From Ulvibacterium sp. (GTDB lineage Bacteria; Bacteroidota; Bacteroidia; Flavobacteriales; Flavobacteriaceae): a stretch of 64,000 bases of DNA. The notes under the pieces were generated by a model. It was not told where the DNA came from and searched no databases. It saw only the letters and a program-made list of their open reading frames with translations. The stretch spans positions 1,264,528 through 1,328,527 of the forward strand of contig NZ_OZ245846.1 in NCBI RefSeq assembly GCF_965228935.1, written 5' to 3'. A program made the position numbers and the translations under genes. This document shows, one piece after another, positions 21,471 to 45,770 of the stretch (the first letter of the stretch is position 1; each line of letters begins with the position of its first letter).

Positions 21471-21962
21471 ATGGAGAAATATAAGCCATTAATAGACGAA
21501 ATGACACGTATTACGGTAGAAGAGGGATACAGTTCAAAGGATGCTTTTTCTTTGGTGGTCAAGCAATATATTGATAACAAATGGGGAAATGTTTATCTGA
21601 ATTCTTATGATTTGGAAGAAATATTTGCTAGAGGAGCCAGTGCTGCGTCGAATATAATTTATCGAAGAGAGAAAAAGGGTACTTTAAAAAGAGAGCCAAA
21701 AGTTTTAAAAGAAAACCCTTTAACGGGAAAACCGAAAACAAAAAGCGACAAAAAATTCAGCCCGCTCTTTTCCAATATTTACGGTACACATTGGAAATTA
21801 AGAGATAAAATGTCGTCCAAATGGAAAGAGCTCAGCTATAAGCATAACAATCAATCCAAGGCTATAAATGAAATGATAAAGTTTTATGGAATTAATATAG
21901 ACGATCCTTCTGATAAGAAATTCGTTATGTTATTGGATGTTGTGAAAGAACACACAAATTAA
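21471..21962 (+). CDS. Hypothetical 163-aa basic protein.
   Basis: ORF converges with the integrase gene (stops overlap). Confidence 0.4.
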   Translation: MEKYKPLIDEMTRITVEEGYSSKDAFSLVVKQYIDNKWGNVYLNSYDLEEIFARGASAASNIIYRREKKGTLKREPKVLKENPLTGKPKTKSDKKFSPLFSNIYGTHWKLRDKMSSKWKELSYKHNNQSKAINEMIKFYGINIDDPSDKKFVMLLDVVKEHTN

Positions 21963-23203
21963 ACTTTAACTGCATTCCAAGCGTTGTCCATTTCCCTTTT
22001 CTTTAAATCCTCGGCAATTTTGACATAACGCCTAAATGTAGCCTCCTGCTTATGCCCTGTAATGTTGCGTACCACCATTTCTTTCATGCCTAATACCAAA
22101 CTATTGGTGACAAAGGTTTTTCTTGCGGTATGGCTGGTAATCAATTTCCATTTTGGCTCCGTAATGTCAATGCGCTTTTGCCCGATCCAACGTGTAATTG
22201 AAGTGGGTGTGGTGATTTTGGCAAACCGACAACACTCCTTAATATGCTTATTGAATTTAACATCCGAAATGATGGGTAAAGGTTCGTAAATGGTGTCCTT
22301 GTATTTGTCCAATAACGCTTTCGCAAAATTATTTAAGGGTACTTTGTGTGCAACAGTCTTTGTCTTTTTGATGTTCAGCATAATATGGTCGTCAAAAACA
22401 TTGGAAGCCCGAAGTTGGCTGATATCGGAGTAGCGCAATCCCGTAAAACAGCCAAAGCAATACACATCCCTAACTTGGGTCAACCTTGTATTGTGGAAGT
22501 TGTGATTATAAAGGGTCATCAATTCATCCATAGTAAGATAAATGACCTCGGTTTCCTGTCCAGCGGCCTTAAACTTTTTGAAAGCCAAGTTGGAGTGGTA
22601 CCCTCGCTCATAAGACCAATTCATAAAGGTTTTTAGGATGGAAATCAGTTTTGCAAAGTAATTGTTGAGCGTATTTTTTTCTTCAAAGCAATAATCCCTG
22701 AACTTCTCGAAAAAGTCAAGGGTGATGGTATCGAACCGCAATTGGTAGCCTGTATCTTCTGAAAAGCCCTTGTAGAAATTCAAAACGGACTTGTATTTTT
22801 TGAGAGTACTTTTTGCCTTTACGTTTTTGCCCTTTTCTATAAACTCATCAAATGAGGGTAGAAATTCATGGGAAAGATCAATGGTTGATTGCCCATTATC
22901 CAGCCTTTCCGCAATATACTTCTTGGAAGGCGCAATGTCATTCAGCAGCATATACCGAAACAGCTTCTTGGCATCGCTCTCCATATCATCCAAAATCTTG
23001 TTGTACTCTAAGCTGTAATTATATGGCTCGGATTTTCTCGGTGTTTTGATACGTTGGTTTCTTTCATCCCAATGCGATTTCTTGCAATCGATGCCCGACA
23101 CGACCTTAAAATACTTGAATCCATTGGCGGAAATCAGCATCCGAACGGGCATAGCCCCCGACTTTTTTACTTTATCCTGTCTTAAATGAAATGAAACTTG
23201 CAT
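21959..23203 (-). CDS. int: Tyrosine-type site-specific integrase (phage integrase family with an N-terminal arm-binding domain).
   Basis: C-terminal catalytic region HTARKTFVTNSLVLGMKEMVVRNITGHKQEATFRRYVK (R...H..R..Y). Confidence 0.85.
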   Translation of the reverse strand: MQVSFHLRQDKVKKSGAMPVRMLISANGFKYFKVVSGIDCKKSHWDERNQRIKTPRKSEPYNYSLEYNKILDDMESDAKKLFRYMLLNDIAPSKKYIAERLDNGQSTIDLSHEFLPSFDEFIEKGKNVKAKSTLKKYKSVLNFYKGFSEDTGYQLRFDTITLDFFEKFRDYCFEEKNTLNNYFAKLISILKTFMNWSYERGYHSNLAFKKFKAAGQETEVIYLTMDELMTLYNHNFHNTRLTQVRDVYCFGCFTGLRYSDISQLRASNVFDDHIMLNIKKTKTVAHKVPLNNFAKALLDKYKDTIYEPLPIISDVKFNKHIKECCRFAKITTPTSITRWIGQKRIDITEPKWKLITSHTARKTFVTNSLVLGMKEMVVRNITGHKQEATFRRYVKIAEDLKKREMDNAWNAVKV

Positions 23204-23339
23204 GGGTCTTTAATTTGATTTCAATGCGAAAAAAGGGGCAACAAATAGGGCAACTTTTTTAAGTTTAAAATTGTAATTTTTAATTTCAATAACCTTTGGG
23301 AGAGCCAATATAATCAATATTAGCGGGTTTAAAGGGGCT

Positions 23340-23700
23340 TTAAAAAGTAAAAGAGGAATGGTAGTCCAGGTGGGACCACATCAAGCGCAAAACCCGTGCT
23401 CCGCTAGGAGGCCGGGTTTTATTTTTTTGAATAGGAGAAGACACTTGGGTTTCTTGAGCATCAAAAAAATAAAACACAACGGCTATAGGCCATGGGTTTT
23501 GCATTTGCAGTAACGGGCCTTCTCTGGTCGCTTCCAACTTTGGAGGAAGCAACCCATATGATACCAAAAGTCTTAGCGAGAGCTAGGACTTTTTTTGTGG
23601 ATGAAACCTTGGGCGAGAAGTTTATGCTGAGCTTAGTCGAAGCAAGCCCAACCTGCCCGTCCGAAATAAAATGAAGGCGGGGCAGGGCCACTTTTAAAAT
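23340..23700. other. GC-richer non-coding segment adjacent to the integrase. Candidate attachment site and/or structured RNA of undetermined identity.
   Basis: Only short overlapping ORFs occur on both strands. GC is clearly above that of the flanking AT-rich DNA. Several stem-loops are present. I could not match it by eye to tRNA, tmRNA or RNase P. Confidence 0.2.
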
Positions 23701-24062
23701 TCGTAACTTGCTAATTATTAGTTTGTTGTGAACTTTTTGATTTATAAAATGTACGATAATTGTACGGCCACAAAGCCTTTACAAAGTCTATAAACCATAA
23801 TCATAAAGCCCCAGTGCCTTTAATCTGTAGTCCATTGCTTCTTTACTGACAATAAATTTTTTGCTTAATGAATACAATTTGGATTCGTATTCCAAATCTT
23901 CATCTAGCTGGACAAGTTCAGAGTGAATTAATTTCTTGGGCATTAAAAGACAAGTAGCAAATGTGTTTTCCTTATTCTATTGGCAATCAGGGCATCCTGA
24001 TTTTTAACCCAAGGAAAAAATCAATGGCTAAGCGCGGGATTAAGATCCGTTTTCTGGGAGGA

Positions 24063-24812
24063 TTAAAATCTAAAAGAAAGGTATGCTCCGGCCCCCGCCT
24101 GATCCACAGTTGGTGCGATTAGCAGCCTATCTGATTTCTTGAAAGGATTCCAGGAGAAAAGATAGTCGAAGTGGTAGACTAGCTTGGTCACTGCAATGCC
24201 CAGGGCAGAACCCAGGATTACATCGGAGAGCCAATGTTTATTCTTAGCCATACGTAGGTATGCCGTACTTATAGCAAAGGCATAACCGGAATAGGCTAAA
24301 ATGGGTTCGGTATTTTTGAATTCCTCATGGAGCACGGTAGCACTTGCAAAAGCCAGAGAGGTATGCCCAGAGGGGAACGCTTCCTCATTGGCGCCATTAG
24401 GCCTTTCCTTATCGATAGTTATCTTTAGGCCAGTGGTAATTGCCTGGGTAAGCAGTAAGGACAGTCCTGCATTCTTTGTTTGGTCAAACCAATGGTTCTC
24501 AGCTTTTGCGCCCAAACCGTCAGAAATATACATGACGGCCAGGGGTGCAAACCTGGTGTAATCATCGATATTTGTTTTTAGGTTACGATTGACCTTAGGT
24601 TGCAATTCCTGCTCAAAATCACCGTTGGTCATCAGCAAGGCGGTAGCCGTCAGCCCAACCGGAATTGCCATTTTTTTAAAGGTAAGCGGCTGCCTTTCGG
24701 TACGCTGATCAAAGGAGGTGGAATCGAGAATTACATCATATTGGCCGAGGCAAAGGATTGGAGAGATAAGGAGTATGAAATAAATGCTAAATAAACATTT
24801 CTTTGAGAACAT
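24063..24812 (-). CDS. PAP2-family phosphatase (secreted or membrane-associated).
   Basis: N-terminal signal peptide. PAP2 motifs KERPNG, PSGH and a C-terminal HWLSDV. Confidence 0.7.
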   Translation of the reverse strand: MFSKKCLFSIYFILLISPILCLGQYDVILDSTSFDQRTERQPLTFKKMAIPVGLTATALLMTNGDFEQELQPKVNRNLKTNIDDYTRFAPLAVMYISDGLGAKAENHWFDQTKNAGLSLLLTQAITTGLKITIDKERPNGANEEAFPSGHTSLAFASATVLHEEFKNTEPILAYSGYAFAISTAYLRMAKNKHWLSDVILGSALGIAVTKLVYHFDYLFSWNPFKKSDRLLIAPTVDQAGAGAYLSFRF

Positions 24813-24897
24813 TCGTATCTTTTTCTAGGAAGATACCTCTATAACGCAATAAATCAGGAATAAATTTTACGTTGGGTTTATTTCCTTATTTCGTTGG

Positions 24898-25075
24898 GAA
24901 CGTTGGGCGTGGCAAAAAAGAAAATGAAAGGACTGGGAAATCAAGCTGCAAAGTTCCAATTATTAGGGTAAGTATCAGAGTTTAATAAGCACTTGGAAGG
25001 GATTCAACAAGCTTTGCAAGAGCAAGTGAAAGGGAAATGAGCACACGGGCATTGAAATCACCTTTCTGGTAAAAC
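24898..25075 (+). repeat. Degenerate duplicate (pseudogene fragment) of the last roughly 40 codons plus the 3-prime flank of the giant AAA gene (compare 38225-38400).
   Basis: aaaatgaaaggactgggaaatcaagctgcaaagttccaattatt...agtttaataagcacttggaagggattcaacaagctttgcaagagcaagtgaaagggaaatgagcac is nearly identical to 38240-38370. In this copy the frame is broken by TAA (LLG*). Confidence 0.75.
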
Positions 25076-25256
25076 CCAACTTTGAATTGGAACGTTTGCT
25101 CTTGGGTTTTGGAGAATCTATGGAAGTGTTAAAACCAGAAAAACTGAGAAATCGAATTGCCGAGAAACTAAGAAATGCGGCAGGGCTATATCAAACGCGC
25201 TTGAAGTAAAAATCAATTTAAACCATACTTCACCCAAAGCATCACACTTTTTGGTT

Positions 25257-28052
25257 TTATCGAAAGTTGAGGAATGATTTAAGACGTAGCAATACCGTTT
25301 CCTTTTCAAAATACCAGTCAGCAAATGAAATGGGGAAAACTTGAACATTGGCCCTTCGTAAGATACGGATGCGCTCTATACTCAGAGCATGTTCATAAGC
25401 TCCGGGATATCCAATAAGGTCTACCCCTAGGTATTGGTCATTTATTTTGAATAAGAGATCTAACGTTGTATCCGCTATTTTATAGTTTTCCCAGTAATTT
25501 TCGAAAACCGATTGAGGCAGACTTTGCTTTACCTCCTCTAAGAAAGTGTCATAACCCGTTGGTATGTAGTCCCCTTTCGCCTTTTGTTTATTGCCTTGTG
25601 CCAAGTACTTTCGAAAAAGATTTTCCGGTTTTAGATCTGGGTGGTCTACGGAAAAATATATGTGTTGTTGATGCCGTGCACGGGTGATGGATACGTTGAA
25701 CACTTCGGGTTTGTTCAGATGGATATGGGCAGAATGATGTGTATTGCTATCCACGACCATAGATAGGTACATGACATCTCGTTCTTCACCCTGAAAACTA
25801 TATGGGGTGCCAATTTTGATGTGGTGTCTCTCAATAATTTCGAGCGTAAATTGATCAAACAACATTTTGGAGATATATTCTACTTGACTTCTGAAAGGAC
25901 TTAAAACCCCAATGGAAGTGGCCAACGAATCGGCTAGGTCGGATTCTTTCTTAATTCGATTTTTTACATCCTTCAACAGGTTCTGGGCTTCTACAAAGTT
26001 CTCGCCCTTGTCATTTCTTTCGCCCCCACACTTTATAAAATACAAGGCCTGCTCCCTATCATCTGGTTTTGTTGTCATGAGTTGGAGCCCGTTGTCATAA
26101 AATTCGCGATTACTAAAATCAATTATGGGGGGAAGACTCCGGTAATGTTCATCGAGCATAGCTACTTGATCTCCACTTTTAAGGCTGTTCATGGCGATAT
26201 CCAATATGCTGTGGTCACGGTAATTTAAAAGGAAAGAATCGATATGGTCCAACTCAAACTTACTGGCCAATAGGTGTTGCACGTTTTTGGATAAAAAAGA
26301 AATATGTCGAAGTTGACTGGGGTCGCCGGCAAAAACGACTCTTTTTGCACGTTGTATTGCCGGAATGCAGGAAGCGATATCGCACTGGGTCGCTTCGTCA
26401 ATAATTACCACATCGAACAATTCCTTTTGGAGCGGAATCTTATCTTTTACTTCGGACAAGTTGATCAACCAGACGGGGAAGGCCTTTAGAATATTGTCGA
26501 ACTCAATTTTCTCAAAGAGCTTGGTTCTTTCTGTGTCGTTGTGTGTGTTGAGCGCGCGGTAAAATTCATTAAAATCTTTCCAGTGATACTCTATGGCCCC
26601 TAGAAGGTTGGAAACATAGTTCCATTTTAGAAAATCTTTTGTCAACCTTACGACTTCCTTGTCGTTTTTCCCCAATTCGGAAACAATTACATGTAATGGG
26701 CCCTTTATGGAGAAATTAGTGCTTAGTTTAAACCAAAGCGTCTTTAGCTCATGCCAAAACCTCTTCGCTTTTCGACTTAAAAAGGAACTTTTTTCTTTCT
26801 CCGTTACCAATACGGCCTTGAACTCTTCCTCAAGTTTTGAGCTACGTTTTTTCAGCTTGGATAATTTAAACTTGAGTTCCAAAGCATGATTTCGCAGTTC
26901 ACTTTTGGTTCGAAAACTGTTGGTTTCCTGAAACTCTTTATTCAGAAAACGTAGTGGATACTTTCGGATTAACATGGATTTTAAGAAGCGCCTTACTTTG
27001 GTAATATGCTTTCTTTTTCCTCCGCCTCTTACAATACAATGTTCAAAACCTAATTGGTCATTGATCTTATCGGCGACCACATCTACGGCTTCATCGGTTC
27101 TAGAAGCAATCAAAACGGATTCTCCGCGACTCATATGCTCCAACGCAATGGCTGATATGGTGTAGGTTTTTCCTGTGCCGGGTGGCCCTACAATTAAGGT
27201 CACGGGATTATGGGTGGAAGATGACATCAATTTTTTTTGTGCCTCACTTAGAATAGTAGGGACATAACCTTTAAATGCTTTGTTGGATCCGGATAAAGTA
27301 TTTTCGCTGTTGTCAAAAAGGTAGGACAATGAAGTAGAGAAATCTGCGGATTCTCCCAATTCCTTTAATTCGTTGAGGATCCCACGTGTTTGTTTGGATT
27401 TTTCGACAATTCCCAACACACTAAAAGGTACAATTTGATAGACATCCTTCGTGCCTTTCAATTTTTTTAGTCGATATCTTAATTTACTAAGAACGATGTT
27501 TTTTGGGTAGCCCAAAAGTTCGGTATGCTCTACATTGGGGAAGTGCTTTTCAAAAATTTTGGTTAGGCCGCTAATATGTTCAAAAAGCAAAGCGTCCCTT
27601 GGTAATGCTTCAAGCAGTTTGTCTTGAAAATTATCATTTTCATCATTGCTGCTTAAAAACTGTAGCAGGGGGTAATTGAGCCTTCTTGATTTTAAGTCAA
27701 TTCGAGCAAAATAAAACTCCTCCTTCTTCTCAATATTTACATCATAGTATAATAAGGGAGCGCAAAGGGATTGTAGTTTTCCCCTGAAATCAACATAGGT
27801 GCCACAAATAAAAAGTGACCCATAAATCAATTCCTTTTCTTTTTCAAATAACGTAATATTTTTTAACAACAACTCTGCCTGCTCATTGGGCAAGGGAACT
27901 ATTGGGTATTTGCCATTAATGAGTTCTTCTTGCTCAAAATAAATTTTATGGGCTACTTTGGACCCTAAAAAATTAAAGATACTAATAGACCTATTGTCAG
28001 ATAGGTAGCATTGATGGAAATAGGTGATAATGTCGGCAAGCTTACCTGTCAT
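25257..28052 (-). CDS. Superfamily-1 (Upf1/DNA2-like, AAA_11/AAA_12) helicase with a C-terminal endonuclease-like domain.
   Basis: Walker A LIVGPPGTGKTYT. Motif II VVIIDEATQCD. Motif VI VSITRARHQQHIYF. The C-terminal segment after the helicase core resembles REase-like DUF3320/DUF559 tails. That part is inference. Confidence 0.65.
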   Translation of the reverse strand: MTGKLADIITYFHQCYLSDNRSISIFNFLGSKVAHKIYFEQEELINGKYPIVPLPNEQAELLLKNITLFEKEKELIYGSLFICGTYVDFRGKLQSLCAPLLYYDVNIEKKEEFYFARIDLKSRRLNYPLLQFLSSNDENDNFQDKLLEALPRDALLFEHISGLTKIFEKHFPNVEHTELLGYPKNIVLSKLRYRLKKLKGTKDVYQIVPFSVLGIVEKSKQTRGILNELKELGESADFSTSLSYLFDNSENTLSGSNKAFKGYVPTILSEAQKKLMSSSTHNPVTLIVGPPGTGKTYTISAIALEHMSRGESVLIASRTDEAVDVVADKINDQLGFEHCIVRGGGKRKHITKVRRFLKSMLIRKYPLRFLNKEFQETNSFRTKSELRNHALELKFKLSKLKKRSSKLEEEFKAVLVTEKEKSSFLSRKAKRFWHELKTLWFKLSTNFSIKGPLHVIVSELGKNDKEVVRLTKDFLKWNYVSNLLGAIEYHWKDFNEFYRALNTHNDTERTKLFEKIEFDNILKAFPVWLINLSEVKDKIPLQKELFDVVIIDEATQCDIASCIPAIQRAKRVVFAGDPSQLRHISFLSKNVQHLLASKFELDHIDSFLLNYRDHSILDIAMNSLKSGDQVAMLDEHYRSLPPIIDFSNREFYDNGLQLMTTKPDDREQALYFIKCGGERNDKGENFVEAQNLLKDVKNRIKKESDLADSLATSIGVLSPFRSQVEYISKMLFDQFTLEIIERHHIKIGTPYSFQGEERDVMYLSMVVDSNTHHSAHIHLNKPEVFNVSITRARHQQHIYFSVDHPDLKPENLFRKYLAQGNKQKAKGDYIPTGYDTFLEEVKQSLPQSVFENYWENYKIADTTLDLLFKINDQYLGVDLIGYPGAYEHALSIERIRILRRANVQVFPISFADWYFEKETVLLRLKSFLNFR

Positions 28053-28070: not shown

Positions 28071-28850
28071 TTATCTCAATAATTCATGTAATTTTCCAAC
28101 TTCTTCTTGGATAAGGGTCAATCTTCCCTCTATCATATCGGAAAAATCAGGAATTCGATTGCAGAACACGTATTTTATCTCCCAAAGTTCTCTCACAGCT
28201 GAAACAGGCATCTCGATGTCTTCAATGTTTTTATGGTCCGTTCTAAGGGTGATTTCCCCGGAAGAAAAGAAGAACCTCCGAAAGATTACCTTGTCAGCGG
28301 TAATCAAAACGCAGTAGGTGCCGTTCTCGAGCTTCTTATAGTCTTTGCGTGCCAATTTTTGACCTATAACGATATCCTTGGGATAAAATCCGCGATCCAA
28401 ATGCGTCATTTCCAGGTTTTGTACCACGAAGGCACGAGATGATTCCGCGTTTGAAATAGGTAATTGAAGTTTGGGCAACCCTTTGATATAGGCCTCGTTT
28501 TCAAAAGAGGTGGGGTAATCCAAAATAAGCTCGTAGGTGACACAACCGATTTCTGGAAATAGATCTTTGGAAATCCTAGTTGAATCCGTGGTAAGGTCCG
28601 CTTTAAATTTGAGCAATTCGTTAACGGTGAGTTCACTGGTCAAGAGATCGTCGATGGAAATACTAAAATAATTAGCAATTCTTATGATTGTGTCGATTTT
28701 TGGCTCGCTACGCTGTTCTTCATAAGCCCCTAAAGTAGCTCTTTTCAAATCAAATATCTCTGAAAATGCCTGCTGGCTCATGTTTTGAACGCTCCGAATC
28801 TTTTTGATATTTTTTCCAAAGAAAGACATAAATGCTAATAATATTTGCAA
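28071..28850 (-). CDS. XRE-family HTH transcriptional regulator with a C-terminal domain of unknown function.
   Basis: N-terminal HTH IKKIRSVQNMSQQAFSEIF...ATLGAYEEQRSEPKIDTIIRIANYFSISIDDL. Confidence 0.65.
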   Translation of the reverse strand: MQILLAFMSFFGKNIKKIRSVQNMSQQAFSEIFDLKRATLGAYEEQRSEPKIDTIIRIANYFSISIDDLLTSELTVNELLKFKADLTTDSTRISKDLFPEIGCVTYELILDYPTSFENEAYIKGLPKLQLPISNAESSRAFVVQNLEMTHLDRGFYPKDIVIGQKLARKDYKKLENGTYCVLITADKVIFRRFFFSSGEITLRTDHKNIEDIEMPVSAVRELWEIKYVFCNRIPDFSDMIEGRLTLIQEEVGKLHELLR

Positions 28851-29060: not shown

Positions 29061-29456
29061 ATGGAAAAACATTTTCAAAAAGTCAAGGATTACCTGCAAC
29101 AGCTTGATTTTGACATTGCGACCGAAAACATTGGGGAAGGCATAATTGTCATCAACAAGGAACAGGAGGGGATAAAAAACTTGATACTCGGGGTTTTTAC
29201 CCCCATACTCATTATCGAACAGCACATATTCGATATCGCCGTTGGGGATATCAAGGTGTACAAAGAACTGCTTAAAAAGAACAGGGACATTGTACATGGG
29301 GCGTTCGTCCTTGATGGGTCCGGAGAAAAAGTAATTTTCAGGGACACCTTAAGGTTGCAGCACCTGGACTTGGACGAACTGGAAGGATCACTAAACTCAT
29401 TAAGCTTGCTATTGAGCGAGTATGCAGATCAAATTATAAACTATTCAAAACAATAA
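29061..29456 (+). CDS. YbjN/YjfI-like (DUF2170-type) small acidic protein. First gene of the PspA operon.
   Basis: 131 aa. Lies immediately upstream of, and 2 nt from, the PspA-like gene, mirroring the E. coli yjfI-yjfJ arrangement. The assignment is weak. Confidence 0.35.
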   Translation: MEKHFQKVKDYLQQLDFDIATENIGEGIIVINKEQEGIKNLILGVFTPILIIEQHIFDIAVGDIKVYKELLKKNRDIVHGAFVLDGSGEKVIFRDTLRLQHLDLDELEGSLNSLSLLLSEYADQIINYSKQ

Positions 29457-29458
29457 TC

Positions 29459-30175
29459 ATGGTAAATTTTTTTAAAAGACTGTTTAAAATAGGGGAGGCC
29501 GAAGCAAATGCCGTTATCGACAAGATGGAAGACCCTATTAAATTAACGGAGCAAGGTATACGGGATATGAAAGGCGATTTGGAGAAAAGCTTGGAATCTT
29601 TGGCACAGGTAAAGGCATTGGCCATACGTGCCAAGAACGATACTGAAGAGTTTTTGGCGAAAGCTGAGGATTATCAGCAAAAAGCAATGCTCATTCTTCA
29701 AAAAGGCCACAAAAATGAGATTGATGGTGCCGAGGCCGATCGTTTGGCCAAAGAAGCCCTTATCAAAAAGGAAGCAGCCAACCAACAAGCTGCCCGTAGT
29801 AAAAGCGATTCGGAAAAGTTTGATGGTTCGGTGGCCAAACTAGAGAAAAACGTACAGGAGATAAAACAGAACATCTCTCGTTGGGAGAACGAGTTGAAAA
29901 CGCTAAAGGCAAGGGTCAAGGTCTCTAAGGCCACCAAGAACCTGAACAAGCAAATGGCGGAAATAGACAGCTCCAGTACCGTTTCAATGTTGGAGCGTAT
30001 GAAGGAAAAAGTACAACAAGAAGAAGCCCTTGCCGAAGCCTATGGCGATATCGCAAACGCTTCCAAATCAATCGATGAAGAAATCGAAAAAGCCGCTGAT
30101 GTCTCGAACTCCAACGCCGATGCCGATTTGGCCAAGCTGAAAGAGCAACTGGGCATGAACGACAAGGAATCGTAA
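29459..30175 (+). CDS. pspA: PspA/IM30 (phage-shock protein A / Vipp1) family coiled-coil protein.
   Basis: N-terminus MVNFFKRLFKIGEAEANAVIDKMEDPIKLTEQGIRDMKGDL matches the PspA/IM30 signature. Long coiled-coil composition. Confidence 0.75.
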   Translation: MVNFFKRLFKIGEAEANAVIDKMEDPIKLTEQGIRDMKGDLEKSLESLAQVKALAIRAKNDTEEFLAKAEDYQQKAMLILQKGHKNEIDGAEADRLAKEALIKKEAANQQAARSKSDSEKFDGSVAKLEKNVQEIKQNISRWENELKTLKARVKVSKATKNLNKQMAEIDSSSTVSMLERMKEKVQQEEALAEAYGDIANASKSIDEEIEKAADVSNSNADADLAKLKEQLGMNDKES

Positions 30176-30221
30176 ATCACGACCACGACGTATACTATTA
30201 CACCTTAAACACCAACCAACT

Positions 30222-30932
30222 TTGGAAAACTACTTTGATATCATCTTTTCGCAGGTAAACATTACCTTAAGTGTATTGTTGATTATACTCATAATCTACT
30301 GGTTAATAACCATGATTAGCGGTATAGACTTCGACTTGGATGTGGATGTGGACGTCGATATAGATGCAGATGTTGATGTAGACATGGACACCGGTATTGA
30401 AGGAGGAAGCATGGACTTTTCTGATGTTGCCAATGCCGAGGTTGACCGTGAACATGTAGTAAATAAAGGTACTCGTAAACTTAAATGGTGGCAGATCATA
30501 TTGATTTATTTCAATTTTGTAGGTCTGCCGTTCATGTTCACGTTTACGTTCTGGATTTTTAATTGGTGGCTTATAAGTGTACTAACGACAATGCTTACAG
30601 TCAGCTATGATAATAGTTTCGGCTTTGTTATAGTGTTGTTGGCCATTGTTCCGTCATTAATACTTACCAAAATCTTAACGGCACCATTTAAATCCTTCTT
30701 TAAAAACCTTAATAAAGATGGGGATAAAGCGGTGGACTTTTTAGGAAGACAGGCAATACTTCTGTCCAATATTTCAGGAGAAAAACTGGGTAATGCCGAG
30801 GTGAATGTGGACGGAAACATTATGAATGTCTATGTGAAATCACTTGACGGATCGGAATTACGCTTTCGTGAAAGTGTACTCATCATCAAACAATCTGATG
30901 ACAAAAATTTCTTTTTTGTAAGTAAATCATAA
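30222..30932 (+). CDS. NfeD-like (YuaF/YqiJ-type) membrane protein with an acidic (D-x)n repeat and a C-terminal OB-fold.
   Basis: Transmembrane segments. C-terminal beta-rich domain GRQAILLSNISGEKLGNAEVNVDGNIMNVYVKS...LRFRESVLII. Lies immediately upstream of the flotillin gene, the classic NfeD-SPFH pairing. Confidence 0.6.
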   Translation: MENYFDIIFSQVNITLSVLLIILIIYWLITMISGIDFDLDVDVDVDIDADVDVDMDTGIEGGSMDFSDVANAEVDREHVVNKGTRKLKWWQIILIYFNFVGLPFMFTFTFWIFNWWLISVLTTMLTVSYDNSFGFVIVLLAIVPSLILTKILTAPFKSFFKNLNKDGDKAVDFLGRQAILLSNISGEKLGNAEVNVDGNIMNVYVKSLDGSELRFRESVLIIKQSDDKNFFFVSKS

Positions 30933-30967
30933 GTCAATTTAAACAACTAAAAAAATAAGTAACAACT

Positions 30968-33034
30968 ATGGAAGGAATCTTGCCTATCATCGTAACGGGA
31001 GTAGGGATACTGCTGTTTCTTATAATCGTATACTTTGCGATTATAGCCCTATTCTATAAAAAAGTACATCAAGGAGAAGCGCTGGTGCGTACCGGTTTTG
31101 GCGGCACCAAGGTCGCTACGGACAAAGGACTTTATGTAGTGCCTGTTTTTCACCGTGTTGAAGTTATGGATATCTCTGTAAAGAAAATCCAGATTGAGCG
31201 TATGGGTGTAGAAGGGCTAATCTGTAAAGATAATATGCGTGCAGATATTAAGGTAGCATTCTTTGTGCGTGTGAATAACGAGGTAGAGTTCATTAAAAAA
31301 GTGGCACAAACCATTGGTGTCGCACGTGCCTCTAGAAAAGAAACATTGGAAGACCTTTTTGAGGCAAAATTCTCGGAAGCATTAAAAACCGTAGGTAAAA
31401 AGTTTGAATTCACAGCGCTGTATGAAGCACGACGTGAATTCCGTGATGAGATTGTAGATATCATCGGCACGGATTTAAATGGATACACACTCGAAGACTG
31501 TGCTATTGATTACCTGGAACAAACAGCTGTATCCCATTTAAAACCGGACAACATCCTAGATGCTGAAGGTATTAAGAAGATTACCGACCTTACAGCCGCT
31601 CAAAACATCAAGGCAAACCTTATCAAAAGGGATGAGGAAAAAGTAATCCGAAAGCAAGATGTGGAAGCTAGGGAGGCTATTTTGGAATTAGATCGCCAGT
31701 TGGCTGAAAAGGAAGAGCAACAAAAGCGTGAGATAGCCAACATAAAGTCAAGGGAAGAGGCTGAAATTATCAAGGTTTCGGAAGAGGAAAAACTAAAGTC
31801 CGAGAGCGCGAGAATTGCTACGGAAGAAAAAATCCAAGTGGCTGAAGAGAACAAACAACGTCAAGTAGTGGTGGCCCAAAAAAACAAAGAACGTACCACG
31901 GCTGTTGAAACGGAACGTGTTGAAAAAGACCGAGCACTGGAAGCTACGGAGAGAGAACGAGTGGTAACCTTGGCACAGATTGAAAAAGACAAGGTGGTTG
32001 AAGTTGAGAAAAAGAACATCCAAGACGTGATTCGCGATCGTGTTATGTTGGAGAAAGGAGTTGTTGAAGAGCAAGAAAACATGAAAGATATTCAAGCCTT
32101 CAAGGGAGCTGACCGTGAAAAGCAAGTGAAAGTTACCTTGGCCGAAGCTGCTGCCCAAGAAGATTTGATCAAAACTTTGAAAGCCGCTGAAGCTCAAAAA
32201 GAGGCGGCAAAACAACAGGCCGAAGAGATTAACATAGAGGCCCAGGCCAAGAAAGAGGCCAGCGAAAAAGAAGCTGAAGCCCGAAAAACATTGGCAGAGG
32301 CCAGAGCTAAAGAGGAAGCGACTATTGGTTTATCAGAAGCTGAAGTAATGCACGCCAAAGCGGATGCCTCTGAAAGACAGGGTACGGTTGAAGCCTTGAT
32401 TATCGAGAAGAAAGCCAAGGCAGAAGCAACGGGTATAGAAGCCAAAGCCGAAGCTATTAAAAAAGAAGGGTTGGCCGAAGCTGAAGTTATAAAAGAGAAG
32501 GCCATTGCAGATGCAGCCGGTATCGAGGAGAAAGCCAATGCCATGAAGAAACTTGATGGTGTGGGCAAAGAGCACGAAGAGTTTAAACTAAGACTTGAAA
32601 AAGAACTACAAGTAGACCTCGCCCATATCAATATTCAAAAAGAGATTGCCGATGCCCAAGCAAGTGTACTATCAGAAGGATTGAAAGCAGCAAATATCGA
32701 TATCGTCGGTGGAGAATCCATGTTCTTTGACCAAATCGTAGGACAGATTACCCGCGCCAAAGGATTTGATCGTTTGGTACAGCATTCCGAACAAGTTCAA
32801 GACATCAAAGATGCCATCTTGGGCAGTGAAGATGTTGCCGGTAATTTACTTGACCGTATCAAAGAATTTGCCGTGCAGTATGATATTTCAAGCGAAGACT
32901 TGAAGAACTTATCCGTGGCCGGTTTGTTACTGCAACTTAAGAGCAAGACCACCAGCAACGAAGAGGGCAATATGTTCGACAACTTATTGAATCTTGCCAA
33001 AAGCTTGGGATTGGGCAATAAAAAACTGAAGTAA
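30968..33034 (+). CDS. Flotillin-like SPFH/band-7 protein (YqiK/FloT-like) with a long Ala/Glu/Lys-rich coiled-coil region.
   Basis: N-terminal transmembrane segment, then the SPFH core (YKKVHQGEALVRTGFGGTKV...). Extended EA/KA-rich repeats typical of flotillins. Confidence 0.75.
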   Translation: MEGILPIIVTGVGILLFLIIVYFAIIALFYKKVHQGEALVRTGFGGTKVATDKGLYVVPVFHRVEVMDISVKKIQIERMGVEGLICKDNMRADIKVAFFVRVNNEVEFIKKVAQTIGVARASRKETLEDLFEAKFSEALKTVGKKFEFTALYEARREFRDEIVDIIGTDLNGYTLEDCAIDYLEQTAVSHLKPDNILDAEGIKKITDLTAAQNIKANLIKRDEEKVIRKQDVEAREAILELDRQLAEKEEQQKREIANIKSREEAEIIKVSEEEKLKSESARIATEEKIQVAEENKQRQVVVAQKNKERTTAVETERVEKDRALEATERERVVTLAQIEKDKVVEVEKKNIQDVIRDRVMLEKGVVEEQENMKDIQAFKGADREKQVKVTLAEAAAQEDLIKTLKAAEAQKEAAKQQAEEINIEAQAKKEASEKEAEARKTLAEARAKEEATIGLSEAEVMHAKADASERQGTVEALIIEKKAKAEATGIEAKAEAIKKEGLAEAEVIKEKAIADAAGIEEKANAMKKLDGVGKEHEEFKLRLEKELQVDLAHINIQKEIADAQASVLSEGLKAANIDIVGGESMFFDQIVGQITRAKGFDRLVQHSEQVQDIKDAILGSEDVAGNLLDRIKEFAVQYDISSEDLKNLSVAGLLLQLKSKTTSNEEGNMFDNLLNLAKSLGLGNKKLK

Positions 33035-33085
33035 TAAGGAAATAGGCTCCAACTCACATTTTGGTTGTGAGCCTAAATTCCTCTA

Positions 33086-33424
33086 TTGAACTATCATACA
33101 ATGTTCAAAAGATTTTCACAATGGTTTTTCGGTATTGATGACGCTCAAAAAGAGAGAAATCCCATCAAAGAAATTCACCTAGAAAAAGGAAGAATTGAAA
33201 TAATCGTCATGCCAGACCTTGGATATGGCAAGGAATATAAAATTACCAAGTGGCATGTGCAACCTGGGCAATTGATCAAAACCGGTGATGTGGTCTGTGA
33301 TTTAGAGAACAGAACGATTTTGATGGAGTTTGAAAGCATCTACGGCGGTCGTGTATTACCGATTGTACAGTTAGACCAAAAACTTAAAGTGGGTGATGCA
33401 ATCTTTAAAATCGAAGGGGTTTAA
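33086..33424 (+). CDS. Small biotinyl/lipoyl-like (hybrid-barrel) domain protein.
   Basis: KITKWHVQPGQLIKTGDVVCDLENRTILMEFESIYGGRV resembles a lipoyl/biotin-attachment barrel fold. A candidate attachment Lys sits in KITKW, but no canonical (A/V)MKM attachment motif is present. Confidence 0.35.
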   Translation: MNYHTMFKRFSQWFFGIDDAQKERNPIKEIHLEKGRIEIIVMPDLGYGKEYKITKWHVQPGQLIKTGDVVCDLENRTILMEFESIYGGRVLPIVQLDQKLKVGDAIFKIEGV

Positions 33425-36400
33425 GATAAAAGCAGGAAGAAAAACAGGCCGTTGGAGGCGCACATCAATTAATCAAATAAAATCAATGCAGGAAGAAAAA
33501 CAAGATACTCCCAGCACTACCATACTTGATGATGGCACCTATGAAATCATCCAAGGACGATTAAAGGAACAGAAAAACGACTTACAGGTACGACTCAATC
33601 GACTGAACGACGGCCGGAAAGAGGTCTTTGGAAGCGTGGTTACCAAATTGATCGCGAACAAAAGAATCAATACCGAGAATAATTGTATCGCAAGGGATAT
33701 CATTACCATTGGAGAATACAGCATTTTGGGTTACAATGTGCATTTCGGGCTTCGTACCAATATCAAACTCGAAGATGTTTTTGGTATCTATAAGTATCAG
33801 GAAGGGAATTTCATCCCTCGGCCACTCGATTTGATCAGCGATGAAGTATTTATAAATGATTTTGTAAACCTCTATAAGTATTACCGCAATACCATTTTTG
33901 CCAAGTTCGCCATGGTCGGGAACTATCTGCATATGGTCTTTCAATTGAGTGATAGCATCTCGGATATCAAAACCTTTAAATGGTTGGTCAATGACGGTAC
34001 CTTGAAGTACCAGAATAATCGCAGTGAACATGAATTTAAAATACCGCCGCAGCATGAATTCAATTGGACAGAAACCAATCGGGATATGCAGCGGTATGGT
34101 GAACATCCTCATGTTTCTATTCTGGAAAAGGTGTTTGTTGAGACCATAGGGGGAGACCTTACCATTAAAATTGAAGACAATACGGACGAAGGGCTTGGTA
34201 TTTTTAAGGAAGATGTTCTTCATAAAGACCAGACCTTGGATGACGGGAAGTTCAGATATGCCGAAATCGGCAACCTGATTGCCATTGAAATTAAGCCTTT
34301 TCAGGAAGAATCGCGATATTTTGTATACAACCACAAGATACAGGAAGTAAAGAAAATACCTAGTATTAAAGACGCTTGCTTGCAACTTCCCAATGACCAA
34401 GGGGTCATTTACCCTAACGGTTATTATCTTCAATCTGGCACCTTTAAATTGTTTGACAATGATTTAGGAAAGGTGCAGTTTCAGGAAAAAATCAGTTCCC
34501 CTAATGGAGAAGATTTCCTTTATGTGTTTTATGAAAGCAAAGAAGGATTGTACGTGTTGATGTCCTATAATGTTATCGAGCAAGAGGTAAAGACTCCGAT
34601 TATCTGTAACGGATTCACACTTTTAAAAGATGGGGAACTTTGTTATTTCAAAACGGACAACGAACAGACCAAGCATCATGTTGTCCAAATATGGCAGACC
34701 ACTTTTATGAAAAGTACTGGCATTCCATCGGAACATACCGACACCTTACTCTATAAAATTGGCAATAAGGATATTGTTGAGGCTATGGCGGAGTGTCAGT
34801 CACTCATAACATTATTAAATAAGGAGGATAGTTATGGAGGCTTATATGATGATTTGGTCAAGTTTTCAACTGATATTCTCGACAGTTACTATTGGATCCA
34901 CGAAGAAGAAGCCCATCAGCTCAACCTGCCCCTTACCGCTATCAATGAAACGGCCAATGCGGCGATCGATGAATTTGAAAAGGTCGTTCAACTGAGGAAA
35001 ACGGCGGCAACCACCACAAAGGCGACCCAGGAAACGGCGGAAGAGATTTCCGGAAAAATAAAGAGCAGTTCCTTTAAATCTATCGATGATTTTGTCCGGA
35101 TTTTATCAAAGCTACGTTCATTTCGAGGAGAGGTCATCGGATTGAAAGAAGTACGGTATGTGGACCTTTCCTTTATCGATGCGCTTGAACAAGAGATTGC
35201 CGAACAAACCGAAAAAGTCTCCCAACGTTGCGTTCTTTTTTTGATAGACGATAAAGCGCTAGCACCCTATCAAGAACGTGTTGCCGAAAAGCAAGGCCTG
35301 CTTGATAAAGTGGCAAAAGTGGTTGAAACAAAGCAACTTCAGGATGAAGTCGGCCAGATCGCGGTAGACCTTGAAATGTTGATTGAGATCGTTTCGAATC
35401 TAAAGATTGAGGATACTTCGCAGACCACGAAAATCATTGATAACATCTCTTTGATCTTCGCTTCGATCAACCAGTTGAAAGCAGCTATTAAAAATAAGAT
35501 CAATTCACTTTCGGTGGAGGAATCAGGGGCCGAATTCGTAGCCCAACTGAAGCTGGTCGATCAAAGTGTGATCAACTACCTCGATGTTTCGAATACCCCT
35601 GAAAAGACCGATGAGTTGTTGAACAAAGTGGCCCTGCAATTAGAAGACTTGGAAGGCAGGTTTGCCGATTTCGAGGATTTTATTTCCCAAATTATTGAAA
35701 AGAGAGAGGAAGTATATAATGCTTTTGAAAATAGAAAGACGGCGTTGATTGAGGCTAGAAACAAACGAACCGTAGCTTTGGAAAACTCGGCGAACAGAAT
35801 TTTAAAGGGCGTACTCAAGAAATCACTCACTTTTGATAACCTAAACGACATCAACGGTTACTTTGCCGGTGATTTAATGGTCAGTAAGATTCGCGATATC
35901 GTTCAGCAGCTCTTGGAGCTGGAAGATTCAGGAAAGGCCGAGGCCATTGAAACCGCGGTTAAAGTAGCCAAGGAAGACGCCATAAGAAAACTAAAGGACA
36001 AGCAAGACCTATATGAAGATGGTGAGAACATCATCAAATTGGGCAAACATAAATTCGGGGTCAATAAGCAGGCCCTGGATCTTACCATCGTATACAAAGA
36101 TGAAGGGCTGTATTATCATTTGACAGGCACGGACTTTTATCAAGAAATCGAAAACGATATCCTTACCCGATCACAAGCGTATTGGAATCAAGAACTAGTT
36201 TCCGAAAATGAAACGGTGTATCGGGCCGCTTACTTGGCGTATAAGATTTTCAAAAGGGAAGACAAAACCTATTTGCATGACTTGTCGAATGCTGCTCTCA
36301 AGAAACTAGTGACCGAGGAAACGAGCAAGAATTATGCGGAAGGCTATGTAAAGGGAGTTCATGACGAAGACGCCCAAAAAATATTACAAAAACTCGTATC

Positions 36401-38369
36401 AAAACACCATGATCTAGGGGTTTTGACCTATCCGCCTAAGATTCGTGCATTTGCCCAATACTTTTGGCAGACCTTGAAGAGTGCTGAAATCGGCCACTGG
36501 AACGGAAGACTTAAAAACGCCGGACAGGTAGTAAAGACATTTCCGAATAGCACCGCCCACAAAAAAGTTGTCGCCCAATTAGCTGAGGCGATCTCTGACT
36601 TCGCCGAAGAGAACCAGGTGTTCGATACATCCTGTAGCCATGACATTGCCCAATATCTTTTTGAGGAAATCAAAGACCATAATGATTTTGTGATCAGTCA
36701 TACCGCCCAAGAACTGTATGGGCAATTTGCCAAGAAATTGAAGGGCAAAAAGTTGTACTCGAAAGTAAAGGAAAAGGTGGCAATCGACCCGCATACCGAA
36801 ATGGATGACCATCAGGAGCGAATTGCATTGGCCTGGCAATGGGTCAAAGCCTATCTTGGCGATGGTTCAGAACAACAACAGCAGTATTTACACGAAGTTT
36901 GTTGTTTATTCCTATTCCCAAATGGCACAAGGACCATTGCTACTACCCCTGAAGAGGATATTACCCAAATGAAAGGGAGTCATGCGAGCTTGATCGAGGG
37001 GGTTTTTGCTTTTAAATACCACAAGTTCGTTGCCACCCTTGAGCATTTCAATTCCTATGAAGTTAAGGCGTTCAATGCGTTTACCAAGGCAAAACATGAA
37101 TTGACAGAGCAGGTGAAGTCCGATTTAAAACTCGATGGGTTCAAGCCTAGGGTATTGTCGTCCTTTGTAAGGAATAAATTGATCGATCAAGTCTATTTTC
37201 CATTGATCGGGGATAATCTGGCAAAGCAATTGGGAAGCGCCGGCGAGAACAAACGCACCGATAGAATGGGGATGCTACTTCTCATTTCCCCCCCGGGATA
37301 CGGTAAGACTACCCTTATGGAGTACATGGCAAACCGCTTGGGGTTGATCTTTATGAAGATTAACGGTCCTGCTATTGGGCATGAAGTTACTTCGGTCGAC
37401 CCCAATACCGCGACGAATTCGGCAGCAAAGGAAGAGTTGAAGAAGCTCAATTTGGCCTTTGAGATGGGTAATAATGTTATGTTGTATCTGGATGACATCC
37501 AGCATTGCAATACGGAGTTCTTGCAGAAATTCATTTCTTTGGCCGACGGAACAAGAAAGATCGAGGGTATTTATAACGGGGTAGCTAAAACCTACGATTT
37601 ACGAGCCAAGAAGTTTTGTGTGATCATGGCCGGAAACCCTTATACCGAAAGCGGGGATAAGTTTCAAATCCCTGATATGTTGGCCAACCGGGCCGATATC
37701 TACAACTTAGGCGATATTATCGGCGACACCGCAGATTTGTTCGAACTTAGCTTGATTGAAAACGCGTTGACATCCAACCCTATCTTACAGCAGCTAAGCA
37801 GTAAGTCGTTTGAGGATGTCTACCAATTGATTCATATGGTTGTTAGTAAAACCGAAGACACCTCTTTGCTCAAAGGGAATCATACCCGTCAAGAGATTCA
37901 AGACTATTTGGCTGTTTTGGATAAAGTAGTACGCGTAAGAAATACGGTATTACAGGTGAATGGAACTTATATCAAATCAGCAGCCATGGAAGATGCCTAT
38001 CGAACAGAACCTTCTTTTAAACTACAAGGTTCGTACCGTGACATGAACAAGTTGGTGGCGAAAATTGTTCCTATCATGAATGGTGACGAATTGGAAACCT
38101 TGTTGCTGTCCCATTATGAAAACGAGTCCCAAACGCTGACCAGTGCGGCCGAGGCCAACCTGCTGAAGTATAAAGAGCTCACACAGTCGTTGTCTAAAGA
38201 AGAACAGGCACGATGGAAATCCATTAAGGAAACTTTTGTGGAAAAAAACAAAATGAAAGGACTGGGAAATCAAGCTGCAATGTTCCAATTATTGGGGCAG
38301 GTATCGGAGTTTAATAAGCACTTGGAAGGGATTCAACAAGCTTTGCAAGAGCAAGTGAAAGGGAAATGA
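33393..38369 (+). CDS. Giant (about 1630-1658 aa) protein with a C-terminal MoxR/AAA_5-like AAA+ ATPase module. The start is ambiguous (an alternative Met lies at about 33486).
   Basis: Walker A LLLISPPGYGKTTLMEY. Walker B VMLYLDDIQH. Sensor region AGNPYTESGDKFQIPDMLANRADIYNL. About 1200 aa of N-terminal sequence is unassigned. Confidence 0.7.
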   Translation: MMQSLKSKGFKIKAGRKTGRWRRTSINQIKSMQEEKQDTPSTTILDDGTYEIIQGRLKEQKNDLQVRLNRLNDGRKEVFGSVVTKLIANKRINTENNCIARDIITIGEYSILGYNVHFGLRTNIKLEDVFGIYKYQEGNFIPRPLDLISDEVFINDFVNLYKYYRNTIFAKFAMVGNYLHMVFQLSDSISDIKTFKWLVNDGTLKYQNNRSEHEFKIPPQHEFNWTETNRDMQRYGEHPHVSILEKVFVETIGGDLTIKIEDNTDEGLGIFKEDVLHKDQTLDDGKFRYAEIGNLIAIEIKPFQEESRYFVYNHKIQEVKKIPSIKDACLQLPNDQGVIYPNGYYLQSGTFKLFDNDLGKVQFQEKISSPNGEDFLYVFYESKEGLYVLMSYNVIEQEVKTPIICNGFTLLKDGELCYFKTDNEQTKHHVVQIWQTTFMKSTGIPSEHTDTLLYKIGNKDIVEAMAECQSLITLLNKEDSYGGLYDDLVKFSTDILDSYYWIHEEEAHQLNLPLTAINETANAAIDEFEKVVQLRKTAATTTKATQETAEEISGKIKSSSFKSIDDFVRILSKLRSFRGEVIGLKEVRYVDLSFIDALEQEIAEQTEKVSQRCVLFLIDDKALAPYQERVAEKQGLLDKVAKVVETKQLQDEVGQIAVDLEMLIEIVSNLKIEDTSQTTKIIDNISLIFASINQLKAAIKNKINSLSVEESGAEFVAQLKLVDQSVINYLDVSNTPEKTDELLNKVALQLEDLEGRFADFEDFISQIIEKREEVYNAFENRKTALIEARNKRTVALENSANRILKGVLKKSLTFDNLNDINGYFAGDLMVSKIRDIVQQLLELEDSGKAEAIETAVKVAKEDAIRKLKDKQDLYEDGENIIKLGKHKFGVNKQALDLTIVYKDEGLYYHLTGTDFYQEIENDILTRSQAYWNQELVSENETVYRAAYLAYKIFKREDKTYLHDLSNAALKKLVTEETSKNYAEGYVKGVHDEDAQKILQKLVSKHHDLGVLTYPPKIRAFAQYFWQTLKSAEIGHWNGRLKNAGQVVKTFPNSTAHKKVVAQLAEAISDFAEENQVFDTSCSHDIAQYLFEEIKDHNDFVISHTAQELYGQFAKKLKGKKLYSKVKEKVAIDPHTEMDDHQERIALAWQWVKAYLGDGSEQQQQYLHEVCCLFLFPNGTRTIATTPEEDITQMKGSHASLIEGVFAFKYHKFVATLEHFNSYEVKAFNAFTKAKHELTEQVKSDLKLDGFKPRVLSSFVRNKLIDQVYFPLIGDNLAKQLGSAGENKRTDRMGMLLLISPPGYGKTTLMEYMANRLGLIFMKINGPAIGHEVTSVDPNTATNSAAKEELKKLNLAFEMGNNVMLYLDDIQHCNTEFLQKFISLADGTRKIEGIYNGVAKTYDLRAKKFCVIMAGNPYTESGDKFQIPDMLANRADIYNLGDIIGDTADLFELSLIENALTSNPILQQLSSKSFEDVYQLIHMVVSKTEDTSLLKGNHTRQEIQDYLAVLDKVVRVRNTVLQVNGTYIKSAAMEDAYRTEPSFKLQGSYRDMNKLVAKIVPIMNGDELETLLLSHYENESQTLTSAAEANLLKYKELTQSLSKEEQARWKSIKETFVEKNKMKGLGNQAAMFQLLGQVSEFNKHLEGIQQALQEQVKGK

Positions 38370-38400
38370 GCACGCGGGTATTAAGTTACCTTTTTGGGAA
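38225..38400 (+). repeat. Intact copy of the roughly 150-170-bp repeat (3-prime end of the giant AAA gene plus flank) that is duplicated at 24898-25075.
   Basis: Direct comparison of the two segments in the sequence. Confidence 0.75.
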
Positions 38401-38544
38401 AATCCAACTTTAGTCTGATGATGCTTTCTTCTGTACTTATCTGACAAATCTAATTTAAAGTTTAAACCAATTTATTAAGGTTGTCGGATTAAGTCTTAAC
38501 CATCAAATATTAAAATACCACAACTAAAAGATTTCCTGTTCAAG

Positions 38545-39984: not shown

Positions 39985-39994
39985 GCCTCAATAT

Positions 39995-43528: not shown

Positions 43529-43574
43529 TCGATAGGAAAAAAAGCTCCCTTTTAAATGAGAAAATTAGAAATTT

Positions 43575-43594
43575 ACGTAGTAATACGTAGTAAG
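43575..43594. promoter_or_regulatory. Tandem direct repeat TACGTAGTAA-TACGTAGTAA upstream of nasA. Candidate operator of the nitrate-assimilation regulon.
   Basis: Read directly. Related TACGTA pairs occur at 50058-50076, 50097-50105, 51078-51087 and 51112-51130, and a single copy at 45771-45779. Confidence 0.45.
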
Positions 43595-43659
43595 AATATA
43601 GTAAAAGTATGGGCTTAAACCGAAGGATTCGTAATAATTCGCCCTTAATTTTGATAGGT

Positions 43660-44352
43660 TCAAACTTGCACCAATCGATGCTTTCTCGCTTTTTTGGAAA
43701 GATCCATCAAATTTTTCACCTGCATTTTTTTCATGAGGTTAAACCTATGGGTTTCTATGGTGCGCTTACTGTTCTGGAGTTTTTCGGAAATCTCTTTGTT
43801 GGTAAATCCGGCAAGAACCAATTCCAGTACCTGTAGCTCTTTGTTGGTAAGATCAAAAGGGATGTCCTTATCCTTTTTTGAAAGCTGAGGTGTTACTTGA
43901 TTTTTTGGGCTGATTATATTGTTGACCAATACATTTGAAATATCCCCACTGAAGTATTTTCCACCATCCTGAACGGCATGGATGGCCTTTAAGAATTCGT
44001 TTTTGTCCGTGTCCTTTAGAAGATATCCCGAAGCGCCCGCTTGAACGGACTTTAGAATATATTCCTCAGAATCATGCATGGATAGAATAATACATTTGGT
44101 TTCGGCCGCCTGGGATTTATTTAACCGCTCTACCGTTTCAATTCCACCAAGTTCGGGCATCCGAATGTCAATGATTAAAATATCCGGAGTCTTTTCGCTT
44201 ACCATTTCCAAGGCCTCATAGCCGTTGGATACCTCTCCTACGACCTCCATATCCGATTCTTCTTCCAATAACGCCCTGATACCATCTCGGACCAAGGCAT
44301 GGTCATCTGCAAGAATAATTTTGATCGTATTGCCTTGGTCAGGTTCGGACAT
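43660..44352 (-). CDS. NarL/LuxR-family two-component response regulator.
   Basis: REC domain (IILADDHALVRDGIRALL...DILIIDIRMPEL) plus a C-terminal LuxR HTH (LTNKELQVLELVLAGFTNKEISEKL). Confidence 0.85.
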   Translation of the reverse strand: MSEPDQGNTIKIILADDHALVRDGIRALLEEESDMEVVGEVSNGYEALEMVSEKTPDILIIDIRMPELGGIETVERLNKSQAAETKCIILSMHDSEEYILKSVQAGASGYLLKDTDKNEFLKAIHAVQDGGKYFSGDISNVLVNNIISPKNQVTPQLSKKDKDIPFDLTNKELQVLELVLAGFTNKEISEKLQNSKRTIETHRFNLMKKMQVKNLMDLSKKARKHRLVQV

Positions 44353-45768: not shown

Positions 45769-45770
45769 AA

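Follow-up and report, generated by a model that had tools for sequence, protein, structure and literature searches.

Diverged direct repeats around a 13.3-kb PspA-AAA operon segment in Ulvibacterium and a single-copy site in sister genomes suggest a Campbell-type recombination scar

How did the 3' end of a giant AAA ATPase gene come to lie, orphaned, some 13 kb upstream of the intact gene? A repeat search of the 64-kb stretch of Ulvibacterium sp. DNA analysed here (the window) found only one direct-repeat family of at least 40 nt. Its two copies, both on the + strand, lie at 24909-25076 and 38238-38405, align without gaps over 168 nt at 89% identity, and are spaced 13,329 nt apart, which bears out the original prediction of about 150 bp of near-identity to 38240-38390. 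A gapped alignment (one gap) extends the similarity to 24908-25083 versus 38237-38411. This span takes in the final 43 codons of the ATPase gene, the TGA that ends it (25038-25040 in the upstream copy and 38367-38369 in the downstream copy), and about 43 nt past the stop, in good agreement with the predicted coverage of the last 40 or so codons, the stop, and the 3' flank. The predicted decay of similarity over a further 50 bp or so did not hold up: past 25083/38412, local alignment of 25084-25215 with 38413-38545 was not significant against shuffled sequences (p = 0.06). Searching 23204-25260 against the rest of the window for att-like repeats recovered the known pair alone.

The left end of this span needs separate treatment. 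In relatives that lack the repeat (L086, L090, and L088/L089), the flank on the side of the PAP2-family phosphatase gene matches the window only as far as 24925/6. The first 17 nt (24908-24925, GTGGCAAAAAAGAAAATG), identical at 15 of 17 positions to the ATPase gene at 38237-38254 (GTGGAAAAAAACAAAATG), therefore are part of the conserved PAP2-side flank (24813-24925, flank A, conserved in all PAP2-bearing relatives) with a short homology to the gene, which marks the old junction where the left edge of the relic discussed below was made. The repeat proper is 24926-25083 (158 nt). This upstream orphan copy, DR-L, runs from the last 38 codons of the ATPase gene through the stop and ~43 nt into a WCX-tail fragment. 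The downstream copy, DR-R (38255-38411), is the functional 3' end of the gene and extends ~42 nt into the WCX fragment, in which 1 nt is deleted. Within flank A, positions 24871-24907 carry three CGTTGGG motifs, and U. marinum is without 22 nt between two of them, a small repeat-mediated indel.

DR-L and DR-R are 91.8% identical and differ at 13 positions and by one indel, and the differences form a mosaic: five fall in the left 52 nt (24926-24977), none in a core of 67 nt (24978-25044, identical to 38307-38373), and eight in the right 39 nt. The 67-nt perfect run is improbable if differences are evenly spaced (longest-run test with 18 differences in 178 columns, p = 0.002), and a second identical run spans 31 nt. 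Divergence also changes at the stop codon, with 5 differences in 115 coding positions versus 8 in 43 past the stop (Fisher p = 0.007). Such a pattern is consistent with two diverged versions of the sequence having recombined by exchange at or close to the identical block, which is a candidate crossover or gene-conversion zone. The premature TAA foreseen in the upstream copy is present at 24969-24971, where the intact gene has CAG; it is in frame, 23 codons ahead of the normal stop, and is accompanied by an M-to-K change and two synonymous changes.

Between the repeats lies a 13.3-kb segment that holds both the SF1-helicase/XRE pair and the PspA operon, as originally described. On its left is the chromosomal anchor, the core PAP2-family phosphatase gene (24063-24812, - strand, PF01569). 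The first cassette gene encodes an SF1 (Upf1/DNA2-like) helicase of 931 aa (25257-28052, - strand, Pfam AAA_11/AAA_12) and is followed by an XRE-type HTH regulator (28071-28850, - strand, HTH_19/HTH_3) divergent from the operon. The operon (29061-33424, + strand) encodes a CesT/Tir-like chaperone (29061-29456), PspA/IM30 (29459-30175), a 236-aa protein (30222-30932), a putative flotillin-like protein of 688 aa with no Pfam or NCBIfam match (30968-33034), and a biotin/lipoyl-domain protein (33086-33424). Behind it is the giant ATPase gene (33486-38369, + strand; Pfam DUF3686, DUF7902, and AAA). The right chromosomal anchor is NirRub (38545-39984, - strand), a rubredoxin-domain nitrite-reductase-like gene that is the first of a nitrate-assimilation cluster. 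The ATPase had been taken to be 1658 aa long, which corresponds to a mechanical open reading frame starting at GTG 33393 and overlapping the preceding lipoyl-domain gene. A protein of 1627 aa from ATG 33486 is more likely, and it matches WP_422082832.1 (Ulvibacterium sp.) exactly from that start.

No integrase, transposase, or resolvase was detected between the repeats when all seven ORFs were screened with Pfam, NCBIfam, and PADLOC. Rfam returned no match across the window at gathering thresholds or in 23100-25400 at permissive thresholds, and a promoter and terminator scan stayed at background level. A protein 100% identical to the helicase is deposited for Ulvibacterium sp. and the next match, from L081, is 77% identical, so that the helicase search reveals no relative of the window genome at strain level. 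For the AAA protein, no relative of at least 90% identity is present in a collection of 15 billion proteins, and a protein search with its C-terminal 599 aa returned fragments of at most 82% identity and missed even the self match, making it uninformative on paralogues. An operon of CesT/Tir and PspA genes with a band-7/flotillin membrane protein and a novel AAA+ ATPase has been described (PMC11237479), in terms of its composition and not of its mobility. The segment resembles this operon type in gene content and differs from it in the SF1 helicase beside XRE, an arrangement found in only three relatives (L002, L081, and P0004).

Both copies of the repeat extend past the ATPase stop into the same fragment of a WCX domain, the C-terminal domain of WYL-family regulators. 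Downstream of the orphan, an open frame at 25030-25209 (+ strand) matches PF25583 WCX (E = 7.4e-9; profile positions 40-76 of 76; window 25072-25182), and its product, right after the orphan's stop codon, ends in GIEITFLVKPNFELERLLLGFGESMEVLKPEKLRNRIAEKLRNAAGLYQTRLK followed by a stop. The complete HTH-WYL-WCX architecture is absent, with only WCX positions 40-76 represented, and no WYL regulator body lies upstream of the tail, whose frame begins within the ATPase 3' end, at 25030. The frame runs unbroken across the right edge of the orphan copy, and the complete tail is continuous with DR-L only; DR-R has the same junction of ATPase stop and WCX and the first ~40 nt of the fragment, with the 1-nt deletion, and then diverges. 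Because this junction is common to both copies, the fusion is older than the duplication. The orphan copy and the WCX tail are pseudogene fragments, not genes.

Comparison with syntenic loci, the check proposed with the original prediction, revealed the variability that it had looked for and supports its reading of the repeats as a trace of past recombination. We examined a U. marinum-like set of eight contigs (L083-L085 and L091-L095, including the type-strain assembly GCA_003626755.1). In all eight, the distance between NirRub and PAP2 is only ~330 nt, and the spacer holds exactly one copy of the fragment. By alignment, the flank of this solo copy on the PAP2 side is that of DR-L and the flank on the NirRub side is that of DR-R. 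BLAST places L083 1-9927 on window 48215-38237 and L083 9752-10946 on window 25083-23867, so that both window copies are matched by the same 176 nt of L083. The arrangement is A-X-[13.3 kb]-X-D in the window and A-X-D in the sister species, where X is the repeat and D is the NirRub-side flank (38412-38512), of which the U. marinum solo site shares the first ~70 nt. The 13.3-kb segment is thus a presence/absence polymorphism flanked by direct repeats of ~158 nt. Homology of the NirRub-side flank to the spacer of the repeat-less L086 and L090 was rejected (p = 0.1-0.7), and the shared CCAACTTT was therefore taken as chance.

The L083 solo copy is 97.5% identical to DR-R, and when DR-L is compared with DR-R and the solo copies of the sister species, it is the odd one out at 12 sites. 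In the left part, DR-R differs from the L083 solo at 1 site and from the L091 solo at 4, and DR-L differs from the solos at 6-7. The corresponding counts in the core are 1, 3, and 1-3, and in the right part 2, 2, and 8. The left parts thus form a star with DR-R at its centre, 5 steps from DR-L, 1 from the L083 solo, and 4 from the L091 solo, as would be expected of orphans decaying independently from one functional sequence. The right parts of the two window copies are therefore old diverged alleles, of which the solo carries that of DR-R. At the five sites in 24926-24977 where DR-L and DR-R differ, the solos have the DR-R base at four; the exception is position 24977, where L091-type solos share an A with DR-L. 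Either DR-L decayed in its own lineage, which we prefer, or a crossover fell in the leftmost 44 nt and not in the core. The U. marinum solo exists as two haplotypes ~3% apart, one of which has a premature TAG of its own, and the solo copy is therefore itself a decaying relic. In L083 (9795-9944, minus strand of the locus), the relic is an intact 49-aa ORF that has been called as a gene: MLGTPGVIKKKMKGLGNQAAMFQLLGQLSEFNKHLEGIQQALQEQVKGK, followed by a stop.

Campbell-type recombination is a single-crossover homologous exchange, with one repeat at the empty site and two around the insert. The contrast between A-X-insert-X-D in the window and A-X-D in the sister is the signature of insertion or excision of this type: direct repeats flank the insert, the single-copy empty site has the outer flanks, and the repeats are mosaic. 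The identical runs of 67 and 31 nt are also long enough for RecA-type exchange. We consider it probable (roughly 75%) that the repeats are the junctions of a Campbell-type event that added or removed the 13.3-kb cassette between PAP2 and NirRub. The recombining sequence would be ~158 nt long, taking in the final 38 codons and the stop of the AAA gene and ~40 nt at the beginning of the WYL/WCX tail fragment.

As to direction, re-integration of a circularised cassette into a relic seems to us somewhat better than an even bet and is favoured over excision. An earlier cassette of the same kind would once have occupied the PAP2-NirRub site and would then have been lost save for its last ~230 nt, leaving a relic, A-X1-D, that was kept in U. 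marinum. A circularised second allele, C2-X2-B2, could then have integrated into this relic by one RecA-type crossover in or near the 67-nt block, with the outcome A-(X1 left/X2 right)-B2...C2-(X2 left/X1 right)-D. DR-L would consequently combine a left part from the relic, since decayed by the premature stop and the M-to-K change, with a right part from the incoming DNA and its intact WCX tail, and DR-R would combine a left part from the incoming functional gene with a right part from the relic. Re-integration would explain why DR-L has decayed in its left part and runs on into the WCX tail, why DR-R matches the solo in its right part, and why the core is identical. It costs three events, namely arrival, truncation to a relic, and re-integration.

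The main competitor, which we hold possible but less probable, runs in the opposite direction: the ancestor had orphan, cassette, and intact copy, and U. marinum lost the cassette by recombination between the repeats, leaving the solo. Such a loss yields the same flank pattern as integration, the repeats with their identical runs are long enough for it, and the agreement of the solos with DR-R at four of the five left-hand differences and through the core and right part is expected if the crossover fell in the leftmost 44 nt (24908-24951). A crossover in the 31-nt run is, however, less likely than one in the 67-nt run, and excision still needs an earlier event to make two copies that are ~20% divergent past the stop and ~4% divergent in the coding part. 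Since that prior event is itself a recombination between diverged alleles, excision amounts to the integration model with one more step.

The remaining explanations account for less of the pattern. Among the sources of a recombination footprint offered in the original prediction, Campbell-type integration gains from the one repeat at the sister's site, and deletion of a paralogous operon suffers from the non-uniform divergence. That second idea, in which the operon or its 3' end was duplicated in tandem in situ, most of the upstream paralogue was then lost, and the orphan decayed, would indeed leave an upstream 3' end in the same orientation, and the nonsense and non-synonymous changes in the orphan are the decay that it expects. 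We nevertheless judge it unlikely: neither the 67-nt perfect run (p = 0.002) nor the step from 4% coding to 19% post-stop divergence (p = 0.007) reflects even divergence, the large protein collection holds no relative of the AAA protein at or above 90% identity, and a sister with the identical PAP2-side junction but no cassette demands at least one further recombination between the repeats. Site-specific recombination, with the repeats as attL and attR of an island or cis-mobilisable element, the 67-nt block as core, and a tyrosine integrase such as that at 21959-23203 as enzyme, draws on the position of this integrase 1.7 kb from the orphan, on the resemblance of a perfect core between diverged arms to an att site, and on other islands in the neighbourhood that carry orphan gene 3' ends. 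Yet no recombinase gene lies between the repeats, and the element of this integrase ends at a tRNA-Met remnant beyond PAP2, with a core (CCAGGTGGGACCAC) that is absent from the repeats. The orphan, moreover, is 13.3 kb upstream with the gene body inside the segment, the opposite of 3'-end-targeting islands, and the solo is not composed of DR-L left arm, core, and DR-R right arm at the diagnostic sites; this explanation is accordingly very improbable. A collapsed or mis-joined repeat, a concern raised at the outset, is scarcely credible as the source of the pair, given the 13 differences and one indel between copies with unique flanks, the small size of the repeat (only ~160 nt) in a source contig of 5.88 Mb, and the solo state with matching flanks in eight independent assemblies.

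The integrase near the orphan serves a different element with a different attachment site. Positions 1-23379 of the window belong to an integrative element, mobilisable or conjugative, that is inserted in the 3' end of tRNA-Met(CAT) and whose left end lies outside the window. Its genes include Fic, a type IV coupling protein, a DUF5712 relaxase-like gene, an FRG-domain gene, and the DISARM-like genes DrmB, DrmA, and DrmE-like. The Bacteroidota-type tyrosine integrase (21959-23203) of this DISARM-carrying element has relatives of at least 90% identity in Robiginitalea, Arenibacter, and Allomuricauda. The right end of the element is the last 14 nt of tRNA-Met(CAT) (23366-23379), which is the only match of its core sequence in the window; the repeats have none. 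In the insertion-free relatives L083, L086, and L092, the tRNA-Met that separates PAP2 from the glyoxalase gene is intact. The U. marinum type strain (L091:10751-20750, RBCJ01000001.1) carries a different element at the same site by PAP2, with an integrase of the same family, HTH_17, DUF5906, NikA-like, and relaxase genes, and we found no intact tRNA-Met there. The presence of a different element at the same site marks tRNA-Met as a recurrent integration hotspot.

Among known systems, the locus is most like Campbell-type integration and excision, with which it shares direct repeats, a single-copy empty site, mosaic repeats, and no need for a recombinase. The usual homology in such events is an IS element, an rRNA operon, or a plasmid-borne chromosomal fragment, whereas here it is a 158-nt relic of the cassette's last gene. 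Islands that target gene 3' ends insert in the 3' end and duplicate it. The locus is like these islands and IMEs in having an orphan 3' end at one boundary and a variable segment, but the segment has no integrase, the orphan lies upstream rather than distal to the gene, and the repeat is ~158 nt long and diverged instead of a short exact core. The DISARM-carrying element provides an in-window control, with a tRNA remnant of only 14 exact nt beside its integrase. Solo-LTR formation likewise leaves one repeat in the sister with the outer flanks of both copies, although the repeats here are not element termini made by transposition. The old PAP2-side junction, at a match of 15 of 17 nt, resembles homology-facilitated illegitimate recombination, which accounts only for the left edge of the relic and not for the present duplication.

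Many Flavobacteriaceae carry the operon together with its divergent XRE gene, but in differing chromosomal contexts. We surveyed the best 80 of 532 related (flotillin-like) loci. Within these 80, the 688-aa protein is 78-87% identical, XRE and CesT are adjacent in about 65, and no second orphan or WCX fragment was found; even the nearest locus, L002, has only ~74% DNA identity. The operon was also missing from U. marinum among these best 80 of 532 hits, from which we infer that it is absent elsewhere in that species. The cassette lies beside PBP1C in L002 and beside MoaC/MoeA in L081, its closest relative. In L081 (4343-9530), the helicase gene is followed by 35 nt and then by MoaC and MoeA, with no WCX fragment, and the cassette is therefore at another site there. 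In L082, the closest NirRub relative (88% DNA identity), the place of the cassette is taken by a beta-lactamase-family gene and an ECF sigma factor, and homology to the window ends on the cassette side at 38512. A codon-degenerate DNA pattern of the repeat core had no match in JGI metagenome contigs, and our searches found no circular form, plasmid, circular contig, or donor with AAA, WCX, and helicase contiguous.

A conserved membrane-stress (PspA-AAA) operon thus behaves as a gain/loss cassette in Ulvibacterium. With the exact junctions and the empty site pinned, gain versus loss and RecA dependence become directly testable. Two features are peculiar to it: the homologous sequence is a leftover of the cassette's final gene with the WCX tail joined to it, and the cargo is the conserved PspA-AAA membrane-stress operon with the helicase/XRE pair. 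It is otherwise an ordinary, textbook-type recombination scar of a kind that is already well documented. Its main value is for annotation, and as a worked example that stands beside a classical tRNA-targeting element in one window.

The PAP2 gene is notably conserved. Its proteins are 93-95% identical in U. marinum, other Ulvibacterium, and Flagellimonas, and in relatives the gene is always followed by glyoxalase-RbfA-FtsX-Dus. At the DNA level, PAP2 and ~60-110 nt upstream (window 24063-24925; 10001-10750 in L083, L086, L087, and L088) are 91-95% identical among Ulvibacterium- and Flagellimonas-like genomes, and the core genes adjoining PAP2 are only 66-82% identical between genera. This high cross-genus conservation looks like recent gene flow or unusual constraint. 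We considered PAP2 as part of a mobile element and rejected this, as its core neighbours are kept in every relative. A more far-reaching idea, which we regard as a long shot, is that the cassette is a recombinase-less mobile unit that returns repeatedly to its own scar via the last-gene relic, perhaps ferried between species by conjugative or mobilisable elements of the tRNA-Met site. If so, Hfr-like co-transfer would account for how well PAP2 and its flank are conserved in nucleotide sequence across genera.

The other side of the locus is variable as well. The nitrate-assimilation cluster (38512-56147), which contains NirRub, NasA, a response regulator, a porin, NrtABC-like transport genes, a uroporphyrinogen methylase, NirBD, and a sensor kinase, is an insertion or deletion relative to L086, L090, and L087, where DUF7009 lies within about 400-800 nt of PAP2. 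Between the window and U. marinum, the cluster is 65-84% identical (mean ~75%), and the adjacent PAP2 gene and repeat copy are ~93-98% identical. Islands also occur right behind the PAP2 stop in L086 and L088 (10751-10790 in each), with nSTAND3 in L086 and an AbiE toxin-antitoxin system in L088. Both start with the orphan last ~34 nt of a NirRub gene (CCAGAAAACGGCAATGGCCTTGAAAAAGGCATAA), an unrelated second 3'-end orphan that probably arrived with elements that normally target the NirRub 3' end.
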